NCBI RefSeq assembly: GCF_055900595.2
Contig: NZ_CM148325.1
Direction: 5' to 3' (one strand)
DNA length: 64,000 nt
The notes under the pieces are model-generated. The model ran no database searches. It was not told where the DNA came from and was given only the letters and a program-made list of their open reading frames with translations. Of this stretch, positions 46,187 to 55,934 are shown one piece after another (within the stretch, counting starts at the first letter, position 1; each line of letters starts with the position of its first letter). The translations under genes and the position numbers were made by a program.

Positions 46187-46774
46187 TCAGTTAACTGAAT
46201 CGATCCATTGCACACTGTCGGCGGTGAGCGTAAAGGGAGTAGGGGTGCAGATCGCCAGACTTAAATTTTCAAGCTGACAATGGCTGACTGACAGCGAGGA
46301 CTGATAGGTGCTGTCTACGCTGACGATTTGCCAGGCGCTGCCGCCACGTTGTTTAACGATAGCTTCTTTGCGTGTCCAGATGCGCCAGAACATTTCCAGT
46401 TGCTGATCTGGATGCACGGCGTCCATCTCGGCATGTTCTCCGAGGCTGAACACCGCGTTCGCCAGCCAGCGCCAGTTGGCACGCGGGCGAATCACTTCGA
46501 TATCGCAGCCGACTTCGCCCTCATCGCTCAACAGTAGGGCAATATCGTCACCGCTATGGCTTAAGTTGAACCATAGCGGCGTTTCCGGCGCGAATGCAGG
46601 TTTGCCTTGTTCGCCATAGATGATCTCAGGTAGCGGGGAAAGCGTGTGTGAAAGCAATGCACGCCCCGCCAGCCAGCGTTCGCGCCGTGGACCTTGCGGT
46701 GCTTTATCGCGTAAAGCCGGTGGCAGTGGAGCTGCGCTTAAGGTCGAAACTTTCCCCAGAACTATCCGATACAT
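46187..46774 (-). CDS. acpT: 4'-phosphopantetheinyl transferase AcpT
   Basis: 195 aa Sfp-type ORF; start lies 1 bp downstream of the apeR stop, so probably co-transcribed with the PKS-like cluster. Confidence 0.88.
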   Translation of the reverse strand: MYRIVLGKVSTLSAAPLPPALRDKAPQGPRRERWLAGRALLSHTLSPLPEIIYGEQGKPAFAPETPLWFNLSHSGDDIALLLSDEGEVGCDIEVIRPRANWRWLANAVFSLGEHAEMDAVHPDQQLEMFWRIWTRKEAIVKQRGGSAWQIVSVDSTYQSSLSVSHCQLENLSLAICTPTPFTLTADSVQWIDSVN

Positions 46775-46775
46775 A

Positions 46776-48005
46776 TCAGGGCCAACGTTTTATGATGATG
46801 GATGTATTAATGCCGCCAAAGGCAAAGTTGTTACTCTGCAAAAACTCACAATCAATCTTGCGCGCTTCATGCATGATGTAATCCAGCTCGCCACAGTTAG
46901 GGTCTGGTTTATTCAGGTTTAGCGTAGGCGCAAACCAGCCTTCTCGCATCATTTGCAGACTCATCCAGGCTTCGAGCGCGCCACAGGCACCAAGCGTATG
47001 ACCAAAATAGCTTTTCAGCGAGGAGAGCGGCACATTATCACCGTAAATGGCTGCTGTCGCCAGACTTTCTGCCATATCACCACGATCGGTCGCCGTGCCA
47101 TGCGCTGAAATATAGCCAATATCTTGTGCGCTTAACCCGGCGATTTTCAGCGATTGCTCCATACAATACTGCATGGTTTCTCGCTGTGGTTGGGTGATAT
47201 GCGCGGCGTCGCAGTTAGTGGCAAAGCCGACGATTTCTCCATAAATGGTCGCACCGCGCGCTTTGGCGTGCTCCAGTTCTTCGAGAATCAGCGTGCCTGC
47301 GCCTTCGCCAATCACCAGCCCGTCGCGGTTTTCATCGAACGGTGAAGGGGTGGTTTTCGGCGCGTCATTATGCTGGCTGGTGGCGAAAAGCGTATCAAAT
47401 ACCGCCGCTTCTGAAGGGCATAACTCTTCGGCGCCACCAGCAACCATCACCGTTTGATAACCGTGACGAATGGCTTCCCACGCGTAGCCGATCGCCTGGC
47501 TGCCGGAGGTACAGGCGCTGGAGGTTGGGATCACCCGCCCGCGCAGGCCAAAAAATAGCCCGGTATTAACGGCGGTGGTGTGCGGCATCATCTGCACATA
47601 GGTGGTGCCAGTGATGTTATTGGTGTGCTTTTCAGTCAGCATGGTGGCGAACTCGCTCACCGGACCGGTACTGCCGGTCGATGAACCGTACGCAATGCCC
47701 GTTTCGCCGCTGGTTAATATCGGATCGCCAATCAACCCTGCCTGCTCTAACGCCAGCTCGCTGGCTCGGGTCGACATTTGCGACACGCGGCCCATCGCAC
47801 GGATACGCTTACGGGTGTAGTGCTCCGGTAGCGTAAAATCATCAATCGGCGCGCCAAGCAGGGTATGCAGGCCATCGTAAACCTGCCACTCCGGCATTTT
47901 GCGCACTGCGTTCTCATACGCCAGCAAACGCGCGGAAACGTCCTGCCAGTTTTCACCAAAGGCAGTCACGCCGCCCATTCCTGTAATCACTACGCGACGT
48001 GTCAT
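46776..48005 (-). CDS. apeR: Beta-ketoacyl-ACP synthase (KAS I/II-like), APE cluster
   Basis: 409 aa; active-site Cys in SSACTSGS, C-terminal HGTAT and GHTLGA motifs; symbol assigned by order/content match to the APE family. Confidence 0.75.
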   Translation of the reverse strand: MTRRVVITGMGGVTAFGENWQDVSARLLAYENAVRKMPEWQVYDGLHTLLGAPIDDFTLPEHYTRKRIRAMGRVSQMSTRASELALEQAGLIGDPILTSGETGIAYGSSTGSTGPVSEFATMLTEKHTNNITGTTYVQMMPHTTAVNTGLFFGLRGRVIPTSSACTSGSQAIGYAWEAIRHGYQTVMVAGGAEELCPSEAAVFDTLFATSQHNDAPKTTPSPFDENRDGLVIGEGAGTLILEELEHAKARGATIYGEIVGFATNCDAAHITQPQRETMQYCMEQSLKIAGLSAQDIGYISAHGTATDRGDMAESLATAAIYGDNVPLSSLKSYFGHTLGACGALEAWMSLQMMREGWFAPTLNLNKPDPNCGELDYIMHEARKIDCEFLQSNNFAFGGINTSIIIKRWP

Positions 48006-48733
48006 AACATCCCTCCGTTGATGGAAATAACCTGGCGGGTGACGTAACCCGCAATATCAGACATTAAATAACTGGCAAGCCCGGCAACTTCTTCCGCCTG
48101 GCCCATGCGTTTCATGGGGATCATCGACATTGCCTCTTTCAGAGCGCTCTCTTCCATTTCGATCATCCCGGTATCAATAAGCCCCGGCGCGATGCAATTG
48201 ACGGTGATTTTGCGCTTCGCGAGTTCGATAGCCAGTGCTTTTGTTGCGCCGATAATTCCGGCTTTGGCAGCACTGTAGTTCACCTGGCCGCGATTGCCCA
48301 TTACGCCGGAAACCGAGGACAGCGTGATGATGCGTCCGCCCTGGCGTGCGCCGATCATCGGCATAATGCACGGCTGAATGACGTTGTAGAAACTGTCGAG
48401 GTTGGTGTGGATCACCGCATCCCAGTCGTCATCGCTTAAAGCCGGAAAAGCGGCATCGCGGGCGATCCCGGCGTTACTAACCACGCCGTACCAGGCACCG
48501 TGTTGCGCGATCTCGTGCTCCAGCACTTCCCGACACTGTTCGCGGTTTGCGACGTCGAAACTGAGCAAACGCCCGTTACCACCGTTGGCGACAATGGCAT
48601 TCAGCGTTTCCTGAGCGCCTGCGGCGTCACGGTGATAGTGAACGCCAATGTTAAAGCCGTCTGCCGCCAGTTGGCAGGCGATGGCGCGACCAATGCCTTT
48701 GCTGGCACCAGTAACCAGAACTGAACGACTCAT
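48002..48733 (-). CDS. apeQ: 3-oxoacyl-ACP reductase (SDR, FabG-like), APE cluster
   Basis: 243 aa; Rossmann motif TGASKGIGRA, catalytic YSAAK; 4-bp overlap with apeR. Confidence 0.78.
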   Translation of the reverse strand: MSRSVLVTGASKGIGRAIACQLAADGFNIGVHYHRDAAGAQETLNAIVANGGNGRLLSFDVANREQCREVLEHEIAQHGAWYGVVSNAGIARDAAFPALSDDDWDAVIHTNLDSFYNVIQPCIMPMIGARQGGRIITLSSVSGVMGNRGQVNYSAAKAGIIGATKALAIELAKRKITVNCIAPGLIDTGMIEMEESALKEAMSMIPMKRMGQAEEVAGLASYLMSDIAGYVTRQVISINGGML

Positions 48734-49197
48734 CAGGACGCTCCTTGTTGAAACAGGGTGGTAAGTTCTTCCGCAGTCGGCTGGAAGGTGTTAATGCGGC
48801 CCGTTGCCTCGCCGTCGTTGATGCTGCACTCAAAACTGCCGAAGCGTTCATCTTGCATCAGCAGTTTGACGGTAATGGTCAGCGTCTGGCCTGCGGGCAG
48901 AATGCCAGCGGCGCAAAGCAATTCACGCGCGCCCAGTACCATCCCTAACTCAATACTGTTTTTGCCCTGCTGGTGGCGATGCCAGCCAGACCAGACGCCG
49001 ACGGTTTGCGCCATCAGTTCAAGGGCAAACCAGCCAGGGAGATTGCCGTCCGGGTCGAGAAACGGTGCCAGTACACCACTGGGCGAAACCGTCACGCGGC
49101 ACACGGCGCTGTCATCGCTGACGCTCACCACTTCTTCCAGCAGCAACATGGGCGCATCGTGGGGCAGATAAGCGCCGGGTGATAAATAGTGGCTCAC
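48733..49197 (-). CDS. apeP: Hotdog-fold dehydratase subunit (FabA/FabZ-like), APE cluster
   Basis: 154 aa hotdog-type ORF between KS and KR genes; 1-bp overlap with apeQ. Confidence 0.65.
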   Translation of the reverse strand: MSHYLSPGAYLPHDAPMLLLEEVVSVSDDSAVCRVTVSPSGVLAPFLDPDGNLPGWFALELMAQTVGVWSGWHRHQQGKNSIELGMVLGARELLCAAGILPAGQTLTITVKLLMQDERFGSFECSINDGEATGRINTFQPTAEELTTLFQQGAS

Positions 49198-50372
49198 GAA
49201 ACCCTCCCGAGCAGAATGCTGGCGTTATTGCCGCCAAAGGCGAAAGAATTGGACAGGATCACCGGACGTGCCAGCGGCTGTGGTTTTTCGATAATGCCGC
49301 ACGGTGGCAGCGTGGGATCGCGTGGCGACAGGCTGAAGTCCTGAGCGGGCAGCGGTAAATCACGCTCTAAGATCAACGTGCTAATTGCCGCCTCGGTAAT
49401 GCCCGCCGCGCCCAGCGTGTGTCCGGTCAAATGTTTGGTGGAGCTGCACGGTACGCGTTCGCCAAACAGGGCGTTAACCACCATTGATTCAATCTGGTCG
49501 TTGAGTTGTGTGGCGGTGCCGTGCAGGTTGATATAGCCCACCTCATCCGGCGTAAGCTGCGCATCGTTCAGCGCCTGGTTAATAGCGCGGATCGCCCCTT
49601 CGCCCTGCGGATGCGGGGCCGAAATATGATAAGCGTCGCTTGATTCACCAACGCCCAGTAACGCGATGGGCTGCGGTTCACGGGTCAGCAGCATTAGCCC
49701 CGCGCCTTCGCCAATGGTGATGCCCGCACGGTCACGACCGAACGGCTGACATAAGGTGGGCGACAGCGATTCGAGGCTGTGAAAACCGTTAATCGGCATC
49801 CGGCTCAGAGTGTCTGCGCCACCCACAATGGCGGCATCGACCAGCCCCGCTTCGATAAGCCTGCGCCCGCTGATCATCGCTCTGGCGCTGGAAGAGCAGG
49901 CGGTTGAAAGAGTATATGCCGGGCCGTCGAGCGCCAGCCAGTGGCTGAGAAAACGCGACGGATCGCCGAGTTCTTGTTGTGCATAGTGCCATGTGGTGCT
50001 TGGCTGCCCGTGGGTGCGCAGGTTAACGTGCGTGTCGCCTTCATGCAGGCCGGAGGTGCTGGTGCCAAGCACAATCGCGATGCGCTCGCGGCCATATTTT
50101 GCGATGGCGTCATCAACCTGCAGCTGGATCTGCGCCAGCGCCGCCAGCAGGATCTGATTGTTGCGCGAGCGGTGCGCAGCGAATTTTTCCGGGATAAGCG
50201 GAAGCTCGCCATCCACGCCAGCCAGGACCGCCTGCGGATGCCCCTGCAACCAGCCTGCGCGTGGGCGCATTCCGGGAGCAACACCGCGAGTCAGGTTGGC
50301 TGCGATCTCATCAAGATTATTTCCCAGGGCGTTGATCATGCCAACGGCGGAAATATAAATCATATTAGTCAC
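49194..50372 (-). CDS. apeO: Beta-ketoacyl-ACP synthase (KS), APE cluster
   Basis: 392 aa; active-site Cys in STACSSSARA, HGTAT and GHTLGAAG motifs. Confidence 0.78.
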   Translation of the reverse strand: MTNMIYISAVGMINALGNNLDEIAANLTRGVAPGMRPRAGWLQGHPQAVLAGVDGELPLIPEKFAAHRSRNNQILLAALAQIQLQVDDAIAKYGRERIAIVLGTSTSGLHEGDTHVNLRTHGQPSTTWHYAQQELGDPSRFLSHWLALDGPAYTLSTACSSSARAMISGRRLIEAGLVDAAIVGGADTLSRMPINGFHSLESLSPTLCQPFGRDRAGITIGEGAGLMLLTREPQPIALLGVGESSDAYHISAPHPQGEGAIRAINQALNDAQLTPDEVGYINLHGTATQLNDQIESMVVNALFGERVPCSSTKHLTGHTLGAAGITEAAISTLILERDLPLPAQDFSLSPRDPTLPPCGIIEKPQPLARPVILSNSFAFGGNNASILLGRVS

Positions 50373-50949
50373 CTAAGTATTGAATGGTGATGTGGTATTT
50401 AAAGACATGCTGCTCAATGCTGATTGGCACGCGTTTTCCTTTGCGATTCAAATAGGTGATTTCCGTGACCAGTTTGCCGCTGGCGTTACGCAGTTCGCGT
50501 TTGTCACCGTTGTCACGAAGTGTCCATCCTGCGGGAAGTTGCGGTTGCCAGGCGCTAATCGGCCAGTGGCTGAGCATTACGTCAGCCAGCACCTGACTTG
50601 CTGGCGGCAACTGTGGGACGACGATGGATTGCTCGGCGCGTAGCCCTTGCGCATCGTAGGTCACCAGAAACAGACGAATGCCGACTGATGACAGTCCGGC
50701 AAGGGTGATTTTCTGGTCGTCGGCATTAAGCATCACCAACAGCGACTGGGTTTTGCCGTTGAAGCTGCCAGTCAACAGTTGTTGGGAATTGACGGCGGGT
50801 GAAATCCCCGGCGCAGGCAGCGTGATGCGTGTGCCAGGTTGCAGCCACGCCTGCGGGCGGCCTTCCTGTTCCGGTTGCGAGTGGCTACAGCCGGTGAGGA
50901 TAAGCGTAGCGGTCAGGGCGAGCGCCCGCCAGAAGGTGGGTTTGATCAT
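50365..50949 (-). CDS. apeN: DUF3261-type lipoprotein, APE cluster
   Basis: 194 aa; signal peptide with lipobox LTGC; 8-bp overlap with apeO. Confidence 0.6.
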   Translation of the reverse strand: MIKPTFWRALALTATLILTGCSHSQPEQEGRPQAWLQPGTRITLPAPGISPAVNSQQLLTGSFNGKTQSLLVMLNADDQKITLAGLSSVGIRLFLVTYDAQGLRAEQSIVVPQLPPASQVLADVMLSHWPISAWQPQLPAGWTLRDNGDKRELRNASGKLVTEITYLNRKGKRVPISIEQHVFKYHITIQYLGD

Positions 50950-53261
50950 TTTTTTGTTCTCTTTTTATCGGGCATAGCCAGCGGCGAAAGCAGGAAGGCG
51001 GTGAAAATACCGCTCACCAGCACAATGCCAAAACTGCTGATGGCCTGAGTGGCGCTGAATACCAGCATTCCCAGCGTCAGCAAGGTGGTGAGCATTGCCA
51101 GCGTGATCGCCAGTAGGGAAGTTAACGGTGTACCGCGCGGATTACTGAAAAACAGCGTGTAGTTGATGCCGATGCCAAGCACCAGCACCAGCGCCAGCAG
51201 CGAAAAGAGATTCACCGCCTGCCCGCTCATCGCCAGCACTGCCAGACCGCAGCCCAGCGAAAGCACCGAAGGCACCAGGCTGATAAGCCCTTTGCGCCAG
51301 CCAAGGCGGGCCACTGCGCCGCAGGCAATCACTGCCAGCGCCACCAGCAACAAACCGGTTAAGACGTGGCGGTAAAGTGCGAACAATTCATCAAAAGTGT
51401 TTTTGCGATCAACCCAGGCAATGCCCTGGTAATAGCTGGCTGTTTCCTGCAACAACGCGCTACTTTTAACCCCTTCAACCGGCACCAGTACGCCGCTTGC
51501 GCCGTTTTCCAGCGTCAGCCACAGCAGACGCCAGCCTTCACTGGCGGGGCTTGCCAGCCATTCATCGACCTTCACTGGCATGGCGTTGAGATCTGGTTTC
51601 ACCGCCGTCAGCCCGGCATTTTGCAGCGCTTTTGTTACCGTCGGGGCAGACGTTTTCAGCAGATGTAAATCTTCCTCCTGCCGCACCAGGGAGTTCAGCG
51701 GAATAGTGCGGTAGTTGCTGATAAGACCGTCTTTTTTCGCTTTCTCCAGCGAGGCGGTAAATGTCTCCAGCCGCCGCAATGTTTGCTGTGGCGAATCGCC
51801 GTAAACCACAAACCATTTTTGATCGACGCTTTGTCCGGTCAGGGCGGTAATGGCTTTTTCCTGCGCCAGAATATGCTGCGGCAGCGCCTGTAACTGCGAG
51901 ATATCGTCATCGACGCGCAGCATTGACATCCCCGCCAGCGAAAACAGCGCCAGCGCGACGGGCAGACCCCGCGACAGTTTTTTATTGCGCCGCCACGCCG
52001 CCAGCCAGCGCAGCATCAGCGCCATCGCCGGAACCGGACGCACCGGCAGGCCACGGCACAGCCACGGATGCCAGAACAGAACGGTCAGACAGGAGGCGCT
52101 CAACCCGACGGCGGCAAAAATCGCCATCTGGCGAATGCCGGGGAAGGGGGCGAGCATCATAATCAGATACGCCGCCACGGTGGTGAGCAGCGCCAGTAGC
52201 AAGGCATTGCGCACTTTCGCCAGGCTTTGCCACGGCGAAACGTCATTGCCGTGCACCATCCGTTCAGTGAGGTAATAGAGCGTGTAGTCAGCGGAAATGC
52301 CGATAACGCTCATGCTCATCACCAGCGTCATCAGGTGTAATTCACCGAAAATCAACAAGGTGGCGACCGTTCCCGCCAGCGCGCCAATGCCGATGGAAAT
52401 CACGCAAAGCAGCAACGGGCGTAAAGAGCGGAACACCGCCACAATCAGTAATATCACCCCCAGCAGCGTTGCCACGCCCAGGGTTGAGATATCCTGCTTC
52501 GCCTGTTGACTGGCGTAATCGCTGTAAAATACCGTGCCGCGCGAGAGCAACTGCGCCTGCGGGTAACGCGTTTTCAGATCCTTTTCCAGCGTATTCAGGG
52601 TGGTGATGAGCTGGTGGGTTTGCTGCATATCAAACGACGATCCCGCCAGTTCTCCGTGTAGCAGATACCAGTAGTTGCCCTGGGGATCCTGCGTCACCAG
52701 CCAGCCGTCCATCAGTCGTAAACGCTGACCGTTTTTCGCCATCGCCAGCTGCGAGCCGCGCATTAACATCAGCGGATCGTTTTGCAGCTCCTTGCCGCTT
52801 ACCCCGGAGAACGCAGAATAAAGCTGGGAGAGGATCCACTGCGCCTGCGCTTCACCGCCGTTTTGTAGTCGGGCGCGAGTGTCGGGGTCAATCAGGCCGT
52901 TGCGATGCTGCCAGAAAAACGCTCCCCACGCCTGCTGGCTGGCGGCATCCATTGGCCCTTTAACATCGCCGAGCGCAGCGGATTTTTGCAGCAGCGTCAG
53001 CCATTCCTGAGCGACCAGGGGATTAGCCTCTTTACCGGGGCTGACCAGCCACACCAGTTGGCGGTCCAGACGCTGCATAAAGCCGTCATTCAGCGCCGGG
53101 GGAATATCGCCCATCGCCTGTTTGGGTAACATAGCCAGCACGCTACTGTTCAGTCGTGATTGCGGCAGCAGGATCAGCAACGCCGCTGCCATGACCAGGC
53201 AGATGATCCCCCATAACAGCGCCGGGCGTTTACTGGGCGGCAAAACGTTGGCGTTCGTCAT
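50946..53261 (-). CDS. apeM: MMPL/RND-superfamily membrane exporter, APE cluster
   Basis: 771 aa with two multi-TM bundles separated by large soluble domains. Confidence 0.7.
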   Translation of the reverse strand: MTNANVLPPSKRPALLWGIICLVMAAALLILLPQSRLNSSVLAMLPKQAMGDIPPALNDGFMQRLDRQLVWLVSPGKEANPLVAQEWLTLLQKSAALGDVKGPMDAASQQAWGAFFWQHRNGLIDPDTRARLQNGGEAQAQWILSQLYSAFSGVSGKELQNDPLMLMRGSQLAMAKNGQRLRLMDGWLVTQDPQGNYWYLLHGELAGSSFDMQQTHQLITTLNTLEKDLKTRYPQAQLLSRGTVFYSDYASQQAKQDISTLGVATLLGVILLIVAVFRSLRPLLLCVISIGIGALAGTVATLLIFGELHLMTLVMSMSVIGISADYTLYYLTERMVHGNDVSPWQSLAKVRNALLLALLTTVAAYLIMMLAPFPGIRQMAIFAAVGLSASCLTVLFWHPWLCRGLPVRPVPAMALMLRWLAAWRRNKKLSRGLPVALALFSLAGMSMLRVDDDISQLQALPQHILAQEKAITALTGQSVDQKWFVVYGDSPQQTLRRLETFTASLEKAKKDGLISNYRTIPLNSLVRQEEDLHLLKTSAPTVTKALQNAGLTAVKPDLNAMPVKVDEWLASPASEGWRLLWLTLENGASGVLVPVEGVKSSALLQETASYYQGIAWVDRKNTFDELFALYRHVLTGLLLVALAVIACGAVARLGWRKGLISLVPSVLSLGCGLAVLAMSGQAVNLFSLLALVLVLGIGINYTLFFSNPRGTPLTSLLAITLAMLTTLLTLGMLVFSATQAISSFGIVLVSGIFTAFLLSPLAMPDKKRTKK

Positions 53262-53835
53262 CGGTCAGTTGCGCTGGCGTCAGTTGATGTTGGGTAAGAG
53301 CGATATCGGTGCGATCGCCCTGTTTATCATTAAGCTGAATGCTCTCCAGATAGGTTTGCCCGGCGAGATCGATGGTATTGAAAATTTTATCCAGCGGCGT
53401 GGTGGTCGGCGTCAGGCGCAGCGTCCAGCGGCCTTCGCCTTTGTCAGCAAATTCGACGCGGAAGTTTTGTTCCAGCACTTTGCGATCGGCCTGGAACAGC
53501 GCGCGCAGCAGGTGGTTAAACTGGAACATCTGCGGGTTATTTTCTGCCGTGATGATTTGTGGCGGCTGACCGTTGATCACCTGCACCATGCGTTTATCGT
53601 CCAGTAATAGCTGCATGGGGAACGGTGAGGTTTGATCCCACAACAGCCCCTGGTCGCGGGCGATCAACATCTGCCCCTGCGATCGCAGCGGTTGCGGCAG
53701 ATCTTTAATCGTCCGGGTTTGATCGAAATGGGCGCGGATCACCGGCTGTTCGGTAAAGCGTTGCTGAAGATCGTCCAGGGTCAGGGCGCTCACAAACGGG
53801 CTAATCAGCAGCGCCAGCAGCGGTAAAAATTTCAT
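53230..53835 (-). CDS. apeL: LolA-like periplasmic lipoprotein carrier, APE cluster
   Basis: 201 aa, signal peptide MKFLPLLALLISPFVSA, LolA-like size; overlaps apeM by 32 bp. Confidence 0.6.
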   Translation of the reverse strand: MKFLPLLALLISPFVSALTLDDLQQRFTEQPVIRAHFDQTRTIKDLPQPLRSQGQMLIARDQGLLWDQTSPFPMQLLLDDKRMVQVINGQPPQIITAENNPQMFQFNHLLRALFQADRKVLEQNFRVEFADKGEGRWTLRLTPTTTPLDKIFNTIDLAGQTYLESIQLNDKQGDRTDIALTQHQLTPAQLTDDERQRFAAQ

Positions 53836-54254
53836 GGTTTGACTCCCATGCGTTCAAACAGAATATCGGGGCTGACAAAGCACAGTTCGCGGCTTTGCTC
53901 GTCGACCGCGACCTGAATGGTGTATCCGGTGGTGGCGCGTTTGCCCGTTTCGGCATCGAAAATCTGATAGCCAATTCGCAGGCGGTTTTCGAACTCTTCG
54001 ATATGCGCACGCACGCGGATGCGTTGCTCAAAGGTGAGGGCGTGGCGATATTTCACCCGCGCATCGACCACTGGCCACAAATAACCCGACTCTTTCATCT
54101 GCCGATAGCCGTAATTGAACTGGTTGAGCAGCGCCTCGCGGGCCACTTCAAAGTAGCGAAAATAGTTACCGTGCCAGGCCACGCCCATCATATCGACGTC
54201 GTGAAATGGAATGATCAGCTCGACTTCAGCGGTAAATCGGGGATCGTTAAGCAC
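53832..54254 (-). CDS. apeK: 4HBT/YbgC-type acyl thioesterase, APE cluster
   Basis: 140 aa hotdog thioesterase (HDVDMMGVAWHGNYFRYFE). Confidence 0.7.
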   Translation of the reverse strand: MLNDPRFTAEVELIIPFHDVDMMGVAWHGNYFRYFEVAREALLNQFNYGYRQMKESGYLWPVVDARVKYRHALTFEQRIRVRAHIEEFENRLRIGYQIFDAETGKRATTGYTIQVAVDEQSRELCFVSPDILFERMGVKP

Positions 54255-54257
54255 CCT

Positions 54258-55934
54258 TTACTCCTTGTCCTGGACTTCCGGCAGTTGCCAGAAATCGAAA
54301 AAATTAAACCAGTCGAGGGGCGACTGGAGCGCGTGATGTTCCAGACGCGCGGCGTAATGATCGATAGCGTTTTGCAGCGCCTGCTGGCGTTCGCCACGCG
54401 GCAACAGCAGCGGGTCGGCAAAGGTTTCGCAGTTAATATGCAGCTTGCCGTGCTGGCGCAGGGCGAAAATCAGATTCACCGGGCAGCGCAAAATAGACGC
54501 GAGAATAAACGGCCCCTGTGGGAAGGGCGCAGGCTGGCCCATAAACGAACTCCAGCAGACGCGCCAGTCGCCGCCGCGTTGCGGGTTGATGGCGATGCGG
54601 TCACCAACAATCGCCACCCATTCGCCGTTATCCAGCTTCTCTTTTAGCAGGATGGCGGTGTCCGGGCCGATATCCGTCACCGGCATCAGGTTAATGCCTG
54701 CCTGAGGAGCCATCTCCTGCATTATCTGTTTAAAGCGTTGGGCGTTTTCGCTAAACACCAGCGCGTTAATGGTTTTGTAGCCCTGAATTTTTGCCAGCGC
54801 CCGGCACACTTCCACATCGCCAAGATGCGAGGCCAGCAGCAATTTGCCGCGCGGATCGCTGACGTTAAGTGCCGCTTCTGCGCCTGGTGCAAACAGCACA
54901 TCACGCCCGAGTTGCAGCTCGCCGCGCCAACTGGCGATTTTGTCGAGCATGGCGTTGCCGAAACGTAGAAAGTGCTGATAGCTGTTGAGTTTTGCTGCCT
55001 GTGGTTGATGCTGGCGCACACGGGCGAGCCAGTCTTGCGACGCTTTGCGCGCCCGGCTGGCGGTGAGCCAGTAGACGCCCACCACCGGATAAAGCAGCGC
55101 GGTAAACGCCGTTCTTCCCAGCAGGCGCCAGACCAGCAGCATCAGGCGCATTCCCCATAATCCTTTCACTTCGCTCTGCCGCGCCCAGTGGCTGGAAGAG
55201 TGGCGCATCAGCAGCGAAGGAATACGCGGCAACATGCCGAAAAACAGGCGCGTGTGCATGAGCGAGATGCGGACGTTATCTTTCAGGGCATCAAAGTGCG
55301 AAAGCCCGTCCAGCGGATAGGTGACGCGGGTCGGCACGAAATAGCTGGTGTTTCCCTGCCAGTAGAGGCGCACCATCACTTCGGTGTCGAAATCCATCCG
55401 CTTGCCGATGGTGGCGTGTTTTGCCAGTTGCAGCGTTGGCGCAACCGGATAAACGCGAAAGCCGCACATGCTGTCTTTCAGTTGCAGGGAGAGCGTTTCG
55501 ACCCATACCCAGATGTGGGTGACCCAGCGCCCGTACAGCCGTGAGCGGGGGATGGAGTCATCGTAAATTGGCTGGCCGGAGATCAGTGCCGCAGGGTGTT
55601 GTTCAGCGAGTGCCAGCAGTTTGGGGATATCTTCAATCGCGTGCTGACCGTCGGCATCTACCTGTACCGCATGGCTGAACCCCGCGTCTGCCGCTGCCTG
55701 TAAGCCGCGCATTACCGCCGCGCCTTTGCCTGCGTTTTCTGCCAGGCGAATTAATGTCACGCCAGGCTGTTCGGCAACCAGATTATCCAGTTGCTGTTGC
55801 GTGGCGGCATCGCTGCCGTCATCCACCACAATACAGGGCAGATTAAATGGCTTAAGACGCGCCAGCACGCCCGGCATCATTGCGCCGTGGTTGTAGCAGG
55901 GGATCAACACGCAGGGAGAAAAGTTTACCGACAT
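54258..55934 (-). CDS. apeJ: Fusion protein: GT2-like glycosyltransferase plus lipid-A-type (LpxL/HtrB-like) acyltransferase, APE cluster
   Basis: 558 aa; N-terminal GT2 features (VLIPCYNHG..VVDDGSDAAT, DADGQH), C-terminal half acyltransferase-like. Confidence 0.6.
   Translation of the reverse strand: MSVNFSPCVLIPCYNHGAMMPGVLARLKPFNLPCIVVDDGSDAATQQQLDNLVAEQPGVTLIRLAENAGKGAAVMRGLQAAADAGFSHAVQVDADGQHAIEDIPKLLALAEQHPAALISGQPIYDDSIPRSRLYGRWVTHIWVWVETLSLQLKDSMCGFRVYPVAPTLQLAKHATIGKRMDFDTEVMVRLYWQGNTSYFVPTRVTYPLDGLSHFDALKDNVRISLMHTRLFFGMLPRIPSLLMRHSSSHWARQSEVKGLWGMRLMLLVWRLLGRTAFTALLYPVVGVYWLTASRARKASQDWLARVRQHQPQAAKLNSYQHFLRFGNAMLDKIASWRGELQLGRDVLFAPGAEAALNVSDPRGKLLLASHLGDVEVCRALAKIQGYKTINALVFSENAQRFKQIMQEMAPQAGINLMPVTDIGPDTAILLKEKLDNGEWVAIVGDRIAINPQRGGDWRVCWSSFMGQPAPFPQGPFILASILRCPVNLIFALRQHGKLHINCETFADPLLLPRGERQQALQNAIDHYAARLEHHALQSPLDWFNFFDFWQLPEVQDKE

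Follow-up and report, generated by a model that had tools for sequence, protein, structure and literature searches.

The stretch of DNA analyzed here (hereafter, the window) comprises 64,000 nucleotides of contig NZ_CM148325.1 from RefSeq assembly GCF_055900595.2, and its region 50365–55934 is the late-stage part, apeJ-K-L-M-N, of the aryl polyene (APE) cluster of Escherichia coli. Probably, these five genes act together with apeD to place the aryl polyene on a lipid and sugar anchor, and the finished glycolipid would reach the outer membrane by a dedicated route made up of an RND-superfamily transporter (ApeM), a secreted LolA-family carrier (ApeL), and a lipoprotein of LolB-like fold in the outer membrane (ApeN). 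This explanation draws on what the analysis established, namely the identity of the genes, the folds of their domains, the catalytic motifs, the signal sequences, and the synteny. Its assembly half is experimentally grounded, while its transport half is what we infer. The gene functions, the anchor, and the Lol-like export hypothesis are already published; our finding confirms them and slightly sharpens the annotation.

Late-Stage Genes of the E. coli APE Cluster

The region 50365–55934 is E. coli chromosome, 100% identical to several complete genomes, and was found in approximately 825 of 5426 complete E. coli genomes, chromosomal every time. A preliminary description of the window, made from the sequence alone, had placed five consecutive genes here, and its boundaries proved identical to those in the RefSeq annotation of a 100% identical genome. 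All five open reading frames are co-oriented on the minus strand, with the open reading frame list and the RefSeq annotation in agreement. Their features, with strand, are as follows:

apeN, 50365–50949, minus: DUF3261 in RefSeq; lipoprotein with a LolB-like fold and a predicted outer-membrane anchor, lipobox LTGC, Cys21, Ser at +2
apeM, 50946–53261, minus: MMPL family transporter in RefSeq; RND-superfamily inner-membrane transporter of the MMPL/HpnN (HAE3-like) type
apeL, 53230–53835, minus: LolA family in RefSeq; periplasmic paralogue with a Sec signal peptide (MKFLPLLALLISPFVSA, then Leu)
apeL 3' end/apeM 5' end overlap of 32 bp, 53230–53261, minus: apeM ATG at 53261, apeL stop at 53230–53232
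apeK, 53832–54254, minus: acyl-CoA thioesterase in RefSeq; probable hotdog fold, YbgC/4HBT type
apeJ, 54258–55934, minus: GT2 (glycosyltransferase family 2) in RefSeq
apeJ N-terminal domain (residues ~1–243), 55206–55934, minus: GT2 of the lipid-phosphate type (GtrB/ArnC/DPMS/PpgS)
apeJ C-terminal domain (residues ~249–558), 54261–55190, minus: divergent acyltransferase of the LpxL/LpxM/PatA family

The five genes lie within an 18-gene APE block flanked by acpT-nikABCDE and yhhT, the remainder of which encodes a methyltransferase, a ketosynthase/chain-length factor pair, a PlsC-type acyltransferase, two acyl carrier proteins (ACPs), a COG4648 protein, an AMP-ligase, the ApeI/ApeP dehydratases, a ketoreductase, and a ketosynthase. 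Membership of the APE cluster is evident from the co-linear apeA-R set, which is present in the RefSeq annotation of the identical sequence and whose order was matched in 80 loci that we retrieved with a 15-sequence ApeJ alignment; this set is skewed to clusters with a fused ApeJ and comes mostly from Gammaproteobacteria. In two genomes that differ by ~4% in apeJ, the cluster is located between acpT and yhhT in both, and the apeJ primers published for CFT073 fit the window perfectly. The same genes in the same A-R order make up the APE clusters of E. coli CFT073 (Cimermancic 2014; Johnston 2021) and Xenorhabdus doucetiae (Grammbitter 2019/2020). The ApeJ, K, L, M, and N labels used for CFT073 are those of Table 1 of PMC8253772, and nothing substantive differs. 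A promoter and terminator scan of 45900–62300 returned counts at the level of shuffled sequence (13 against 10.4 and 24 against 20.2, respectively), and therefore permits no statement on internal promoters or terminators.

ApeJ Is a GT2–Acyltransferase Fusion

Residues 8–130 of ApeJ match the GT2 family PF00535 in Pfam (E = 2.7e-20). The best NCBIfam match of this half is PpgS, a polyprenyl-phospho-N-acetylgalactosamine (GalNAc) synthase, at 53 bits against a cut-off of 370, and its sequence relatives in the PDB are DPMS and ArnC. In the full-length AlphaFold2 model of ApeJ (pLDDT 93.8), the fold of the N-terminal half matched GtrB, ArnC, and DPMS in Foldseek with E-values of 1e-8 to 1e-10. 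Residues D39, D93, and D95 are invariant, the latter two belonging to a DAD sequence that forms the DxD motif. The N-terminal half thus combines a GT-A domain, a DxD motif, and a GtrB/ArnC/DPMS-like fold. GtrB, ArnC, DPMS, and PpgS are its best matches by family and by fold and share the DxD motif, but the scores fall far under the cut-offs and the implied acceptor of ApeJ is diacylglycerol phosphate rather than polyprenyl phosphate. GtrB and ArnC also carry a C-terminal transmembrane hairpin that ApeJ lacks; only one weak hydrophobic segment was found in it.

The C-terminal half is invisible to single-sequence searches of Pfam and the PDB, so that profile and fold methods were needed. The sole direct match of E. 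coli ApeJ to an acyltransferase-type family was a weak one, to the phosphatidylinositol mannoside acyltransferase of NCBIfam (E = 0.0025). Designed ankyrin-repeat proteins were all that the single-sequence searches with this half returned, and they weakly persist in the profile search; we judged them spurious. With residues 236–558 as the query, 2901 relatives were found, and the best 150 cluster representatives included 78 stand-alone proteins (280–360 aa) and 46 GT2 fusions (540–630 aa). Among 111 aligned homologues, which are 32–53% identical to ApeJ, 94 matched PF03279 (Lip_A_acyltrans) singly, the best at 3.9e-19. The profile of this acyltransferase family matched LpxM (5kn7, E = 1e-6) and PatA (E = 0.02), and the family motif SHLGxxE, which reads SHLGDVE in ApeJ, aligned on PHFGTWE of LpxM, the HX4E catalytic motif. 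In this motif H370 never varies, while E375 reaches a conservation of at least 90%; D445-R446 is invariant in the family alignment as well. The predicted model agrees with the profile, as the fold of the C-terminal half matches PatA with an E-value of ~5e-10 and a target-normalized TM-score of 0.68–0.71.

Taken together, the domain matches, conserved motifs, and fold indicate that ApeJ is a genuine fusion of two domains, each of which looks catalytically competent judging from the sequence and the model. The preliminary description had proposed precisely this arrangement, a GT2-like N-terminus joined to a lipid-A-type acyltransferase, and had noted that the idea would fail if no similarity to acyltransferases could be found; such similarity emerged from the profile and the fold, though not from the single sequence.

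PatA is a phosphatidylinositol-mannoside 6-O-acyltransferase that acylates the 6-OH of the sugar on a phosphatidyl glycolipid. By analogy, the presumed reaction of the ApeJ C-terminal half would be acylation of a sugar 6-OH on a glycophospholipid. The half shares its fold with PatA and its HX4E motif with LpxM, members with LpxL of the PF03279 group, but identity is ~17%, the ApeJ domain is fused to a GT2, and its donor is presumably an aryl-polyenoyl-ACP.

Where the GT2 and the acyltransferase are encoded separately, the two genes adjoin in the same slot, which makes E. coli ApeJ a simple fusion of neighboring genes. An apparent triple fusion was seen in one representative protein (P0127, 1185 aa), in which ApeH, ApeI, and ApeJ are joined as AMP-ligase, dehydratase, GT2, and acyltransferase.

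ApeM, ApeL, and ApeN Resemble a Lipid-Export Set

The match of ApeM to MMPL (PF03176) in Pfam is weak but significant (E = 8.6e-8). A hydropathy scan gave 11 hydrophobic segments arranged 1+5/6 and 5, with large periplasmic loops at residues 33–257 (~225 residues) and 451–632 (~180 residues), in keeping with the RND/MMPL topology of twelve helices and two large periplasmic loops. By sequence, its best PDB relatives are 5khn and 6wu0, structures of the hopanoid shuttle HpnN. All NCBIfam scores are below their cut-offs: 49.8 bits against 351.9 for HAE3, 46 against 751.85 for HpnN, and 30.8 against 1400 for BstA. The charged residue looked for in transmembrane segment (TM) 4 or TM10 of such transporters is present; D325-Y326 (GISADY, TM4) and Y701 (GINY, TM10) are invariant in 71 orthologues with identity down to 26%. 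By analogy with MmpL3 and HpnN, these residues may form a proton relay. ApeM accordingly has its best sequence relatives in HpnN, the MmpL-type RND proteins, and BstA, with which it shares the RND topology and the TM4 Asp-Tyr pair; it is shorter than these relatives (771 aa against ~880 aa), and its scores lie far under the cut-offs. In the sterol system BstABC, the RND protein is paired with periplasmic and outer-membrane partners. The RefSeq annotation shows no membrane-fusion or outer-membrane-channel partner encoded near apeM.

ApeL matches LolA (PF03548, E = 1.6e-11) and LolA_3 (PF19574, E = 5.5e-11) in Pfam. Against the housekeeping LolA equivalog TIGR00547 it scores 60.3 bits, below the cut-off of 112, and its second-best family is the flexirubin LolA2_flexi at 55 bits (E = 6.5e-15, cut-off 125). 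Its closest solved relative, PDB 8t5j (E = 1.2e-22), was deposited as a LolA-family lipocarrier and may belong with the ApeL-type paralogues instead of the housekeeping LolA proteins; a literature search on the entries 8t5j, 9coz, and 9cwl did not find a relevant paper. The N-terminus MKFLPLLALLISPFVSA, encoded at 53785–53835, is a hydrophobic Sec-type leader, which is present in all orthologues with a clear start. A LolA domain preceded by a Sec signal peptide marks ApeL as a secreted LolA-family paralogue, not the housekeeping LolA, as judged from its sequence. Whereas the text of the Grammbitter 2020 preprint (10.1101/2020.12.19.423268) terms ApeL a cytoplasmic LolA-like protein, the Sec-type signal peptide carried by ApeL and its orthologues leads us to expect a periplasmic location.

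ApeN matches DUF3261 in Pfam (E = 3.4e-39), and its N-terminus, MIKPTFWRALALTATLILTGC followed by Ser, contains the canonical lipobox L-T-G-C at residues 18–21 with Ser at +2. The lipobox is found in 67 of 73 ApeN orthologues, in which the +2 residue is Ser or Ala and in none Asp. In E. coli, a lipoprotein without an inner-membrane retention signal (Asp at +2) is sorted to the outer membrane; under this rule, a lipobox without Asp at +2, as expected of a LolB-type protein, predicts that ApeN is placed there. The predicted fold of ApeN is nearer to LolB than to LolA and has the unclosed beta-barrel and helical lid of LolB. Membership of the LolB sequence family was not found, since the protein matches DUF3261 alone in Pfam and matches nothing in NCBIfam or, by sequence, in the PDB.

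ApeK matches 4HBT_2 (PF13279) in Pfam with E = 1.3e-16 and scores 60.8 bits against the YbgC/FadM subfamily TIGR00051, slightly under its cut-off of 68.7. In its HDVDMMG sequence, an Asp aligns, by eye alone, with the Asp that is catalytic in YbgC. A part in biosynthesis or release, not in targeting, is the probable role of ApeK. Of the functions that the preliminary description had read from these genes, the DUF3261-type lipoprotein with a lipobox, the RND/MMPL-like exporter, and the LolA-like periplasmic carrier are borne out by these matches and signals, and the thioesterase agrees with the 4HBT_2 match.

Synteny and the apeL/apeM Overlap

The retrieved loci span Enterobacterales, Vibrionaceae, Aeromonas, Shewanella, Gilliamella, Zoogloeaceae, Thalassospira, and further groups. 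Essentially all 80 preserve the J-K-L-M-N order, and nearly all loci of sufficient length keep the longer run H I J K L M N O P Q R; apeL-M-N occurred together throughout.

The 32-bp overlap of apeL and apeM can be read straight from the sequence. An overlap of 23–35 bp was present in 42 of 73 loci, in Enterobacterales and many Vibrionaceae, and in several genera the overlapping ATG is the sole possible apeM start. In Shewanella the two genes overlap by 1–4 bp or are separated by short gaps, and in Aeromonas they are separated by gaps. Two alternative starts were rejected: a downstream in-frame TTG would still overlap by 14 bp and is missing in several genera, and the next ATG (Met24) sits inside TM1. 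Conservation of the overlap within the clade fits translational coupling of the two genes. The preliminary description had called this overlap unusual next to 4-bp overlaps elsewhere; the 32 bp hold, but the comparison stands only in part, since by the RefSeq starts the cluster also contains overlaps of 26 bp (apeD/apeE, 58704–58729), 14 bp (apeH/apeI, 56265–56278), and 10 bp (apeI/apeJ, 55925–55934).

Two variant clusters depart from the usual arrangement. In a metagenomic cluster on a single contig (L084, positions 9001–12249), an LpxL/PatA-like acyltransferase domain is attached to the C-terminus of ApeM by a short Gly/Ala linker, giving a protein of 1082 aa, and a stand-alone 259-aa GT2 gene occupies the J slot. 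In the other (L087, positions 5187–9960), an aromatic ammonia-lyase gene lies between the acyltransferase gene and apeK, and two genes (418 and 341 aa) without a Pfam match fill the usual apeM slot.

Proposed Assembly and Export of the APE Lipid

The Xenorhabdus product is an APE-6-O-GalNAc-1-phosphate-diacylglycerol with the aryl polyene ester at C6 of GalNAc, and a Xenorhabdus apeJ mutant accumulates an acylated glycerol-phosphate intermediate (Grammbitter 2020, 10.1101/2020.12.19.423268). In E. coli, apeD and apeJ mutants yield late intermediates, an apeK mutant early free acids, and an apeM mutant no mature APE lipid (Johnston 2021, PMC8253772). The domain types of ApeJ, a lipid-phosphate GT2 and a PatA-like acyltransferase, fit the chemistry of the Xenorhabdus product closely, and the sugar-1-phosphate linkage of that product suggests that the GT2 domain transfers the sugar to a lipid monophosphate.

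In the pathway that we favor, ApeD would make a phosphatidic-acid-type lipid, and the GT2 domain of ApeJ would add a hexosamine (GalNAc in Xenorhabdus) to the lipid phosphate. The PatA/LpxM-like domain of ApeJ, with its His/Glu pair, would then move the aryl polyene from its carrier protein to the 6-hydroxyl of the sugar, and the putative hotdog thioesterase ApeK may help in release or proofreading. ApeM, as a proton-driven RND protein of the HpnN/MmpL type, would pull the finished lipid out of the inner membrane; ApeL would shield it while it crosses the periplasm; and ApeN, itself placed in the outer membrane by the housekeeping Lol system, would receive and insert it. The order of the two ApeJ reactions, the relay of the lipid from ApeM through ApeL to ApeN, and the energization by the proton motive force are our proposals for how these parts likely work together.

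Transport of the lipid to the outer membrane by ApeM, the LolA-like ApeL, and the LolB-like ApeN was proposed by Johnston 2021 (PMC8253772) and Grammbitter 2020, and De Smet et al. 2025 made the same suggestion, as a proposal, for LolA2/LolB2 of the flexirubin system. This view is strengthened by the LolB fold of ApeN and its sorting signal, by the signal peptide that ApeL carries, by the affinities of ApeM to lipid shuttles, and by the strict synteny. The idea in the preliminary description that the polyketide is attached to a lipid or sugar anchor and trafficked by a dedicated Lol-like route is thus supported and agrees with the published models; the anchor is chemically proven in Xenorhabdus, and the transport route is the inferred part.

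The proposed route shares two parts with the Lol pathway (LolCDE-LolA-LolB): its carrier is a secreted LolA-family protein, and its outer-membrane lipoprotein has a predicted LolB fold. It differs in its extractor, an RND protein instead of LolCDE, and in its presumed cargo, a glycolipid instead of a lipoprotein; ApeL, moreover, falls under the LolA equivalog cut-off, and ApeN lacks a match to the LolB sequence family. Because its inner-membrane step relies on an RND protein in place of an ABC transporter of the LolCDE type, the route would be a hybrid, and since ApeN would be delivered by the housekeeping Lol system, the dedicated route would depend on the general one. The flexirubin LolA2/LolB2 of Flavobacterium johnsoniae (De Smet et al. 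2025) are likewise Lol paralogues within an aryl-polyene-type pigment locus; the score of ApeL against that LolA2 family, below its cut-off as given above, the phylum, and the pigment ester set the two systems apart.

Alternative Explanations

Several observations weigh against the proposed pathway. Clean non-polar deletions of apeL and apeN were not obtained in E. coli, where the mutants are possibly polar (PMC8253772). The anchor structure is known for Xenorhabdus only, whose ApeJ is ~65% identical in the retrieved set, and substrates cannot be transferred by homology because ApeL, ApeM, and ApeK score under the NCBIfam cut-offs. E. coli ApeJ as a single sequence gave no match to PF03279 in Pfam even at E ≤ 10, and the fusion of ApeM with an acyltransferase is known from one metagenomic contig only.

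Three other explanations were weighed, and we regard each as less likely than the pathway above. It is unlikely that ApeM alone shuttles the lipid via its periplasmic domains in an HpnN-like manner, with ApeL and ApeN as accessory stabilizers, assembly factors, or regulators. A direct shuttle has been proposed for HpnN, whose structures are the nearest solved relatives of ApeM, and the two large periplasmic loops of ApeM could serve this purpose. An apeM mutation by itself also abolishes the mature lipid (PMC8253772). Against this stand the LolA- and LolB-like genes that lie beside apeM in essentially every locus, and also in the distant flexirubin clusters, as well as the predicted outer-membrane position of ApeN, which fits a receptor better than an accessory of an inner-membrane pump. 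A second alternative is that ApeL and ApeN are a private chaperone and receptor for lipoproteins of the cluster, such as ApeA, while the pigment lipid reaches the outer membrane otherwise. The cluster does encode lipoproteins, namely ApeA (lipobox LAGC) and ApeN itself, the folds and families of ApeL and ApeN are those of lipoprotein carriers, and De Smet et al. 2025 left open whether the flexirubin LolA2/LolB2 cargo is the pigment or the locus-encoded lipoproteins. Yet apeA is dispensable for pigmentation (PMC8253772), and many loci lack it or carry it in another place, whereas apeL-M-N stay together throughout. Housekeeping LolA and LolB are available in E. coli, and the lipoboxes of ApeA and ApeN look standard. 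ApeL is also well under the LolA equivalog cut-off, and the conserved overlap ties apeL to the RND gene, which points to a substrate shared with ApeM. We find this explanation quite improbable.

Least probable of all, in our estimation, is that the finished lipid stays in the outer leaflet of the inner membrane, that the module only flips it, and that the Lol-like proteins have an unrelated envelope role. In the literature examined, the outer-membrane location was argued by analogy with xanthomonadins rather than from fractionation of the E. coli product. However, a secreted carrier and an outer-membrane-sorted lipoprotein with a LolB fold would be hard to explain in that case, and related pigments are reported in the outer membrane (Grammbitter 2020 preprint).

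The variant ApeM described above also raises the possibility of a closer link between assembly and export. If that fusion is real, it suggests a possible Rosetta-stone link, with a physical coupling between export and the final acylation step. The acyltransferase domain of ApeJ might then dock on ApeM, so that the chain is added at the hand-over to ApeM and the lipid proceeds to the LolA- and LolB-like carriers; we put this forward tentatively and rather doubt that it applies. If true, ApeLMN would be an experimentally tractable RND-plus-Lol-paralogue route for a non-protein lipid, and the conserved overlap of 23–35 bp would enforce translational coupling of the carrier and the pump.

Neighboring Genes and Other Features of the Window

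Four further genes of the block and its border touch on the pathway:

acpT, 46187–46774, minus: phosphopantetheinyl transferase (RefSeq), 1 bp downstream of apeR
apeG, 57623–58204, minus: small COG4648 membrane protein with four hydrophobic segments, kept in all loci alongside apeLMN
apeD, 58704–59525, minus: PlsC-type lysophospholipid acyltransferase (NCBIfam AGP_acyltrn match and RefSeq annotation)
apeA, 61412–61789, minus: small lipoprotein, lipobox LAGC, Ala at +2

A role of apeD in the same anchoring pathway is described in the Grammbitter 2020 preprint and in PMC8253772. ApeG gave no family match in the NCBIfam search. The apeA product matches Lpp/OprI-type alanine-zipper lipoproteins weakly (E = 0.003); the position and orientation of the gene differ among genera, and it is missing from many loci.

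The CFT073 paper (PMC8253772) describes the cluster as being without a dedicated phosphopantetheinyl transferase. In contrast to that description, acpT here directly follows apeR on the same strand with a 1-bp gap, and this succession of the two genes recurs in 24 of the 80 loci. PMC8253772 cites De Lay & Cronan 2006 for the activation of the ApeE/F homologues of O157:H7 by acpT. The gene looks like the last one of the operon in Enterobacteriaceae.

Elsewhere in the window, a low-GC island (33% GC, 12001–14000) contains a coding sequence for a 407-aa hypothetical protein (~12417–13640, minus strand), with slp on one side and an ArsR-family/permease pair on the other. Two neighboring DUF4049 paralogues of low GC content lie at ~31966–35457 on the plus strand, within a 34% GC stretch (32001–34000); one is yhiJ, and the other is annotated as a pseudogene with an internal stop.

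Implications

Few biosynthetic gene clusters of Gram-negative bacteria are as widespread as those for APEs, whose products give protection from oxidative stress. ApeL-M-N is a compact candidate system for studying the passage of a bulky glycolipid through the periplasm. To the published picture this analysis adds a PatA/LpxM-type domain with an intact HX4E motif in ApeJ, a predicted ApeN fold that resembles LolB more than LolA, an invariant Asp-Tyr pair in TM4 of ApeM, and an evolutionarily conserved apeL/apeM overlap.

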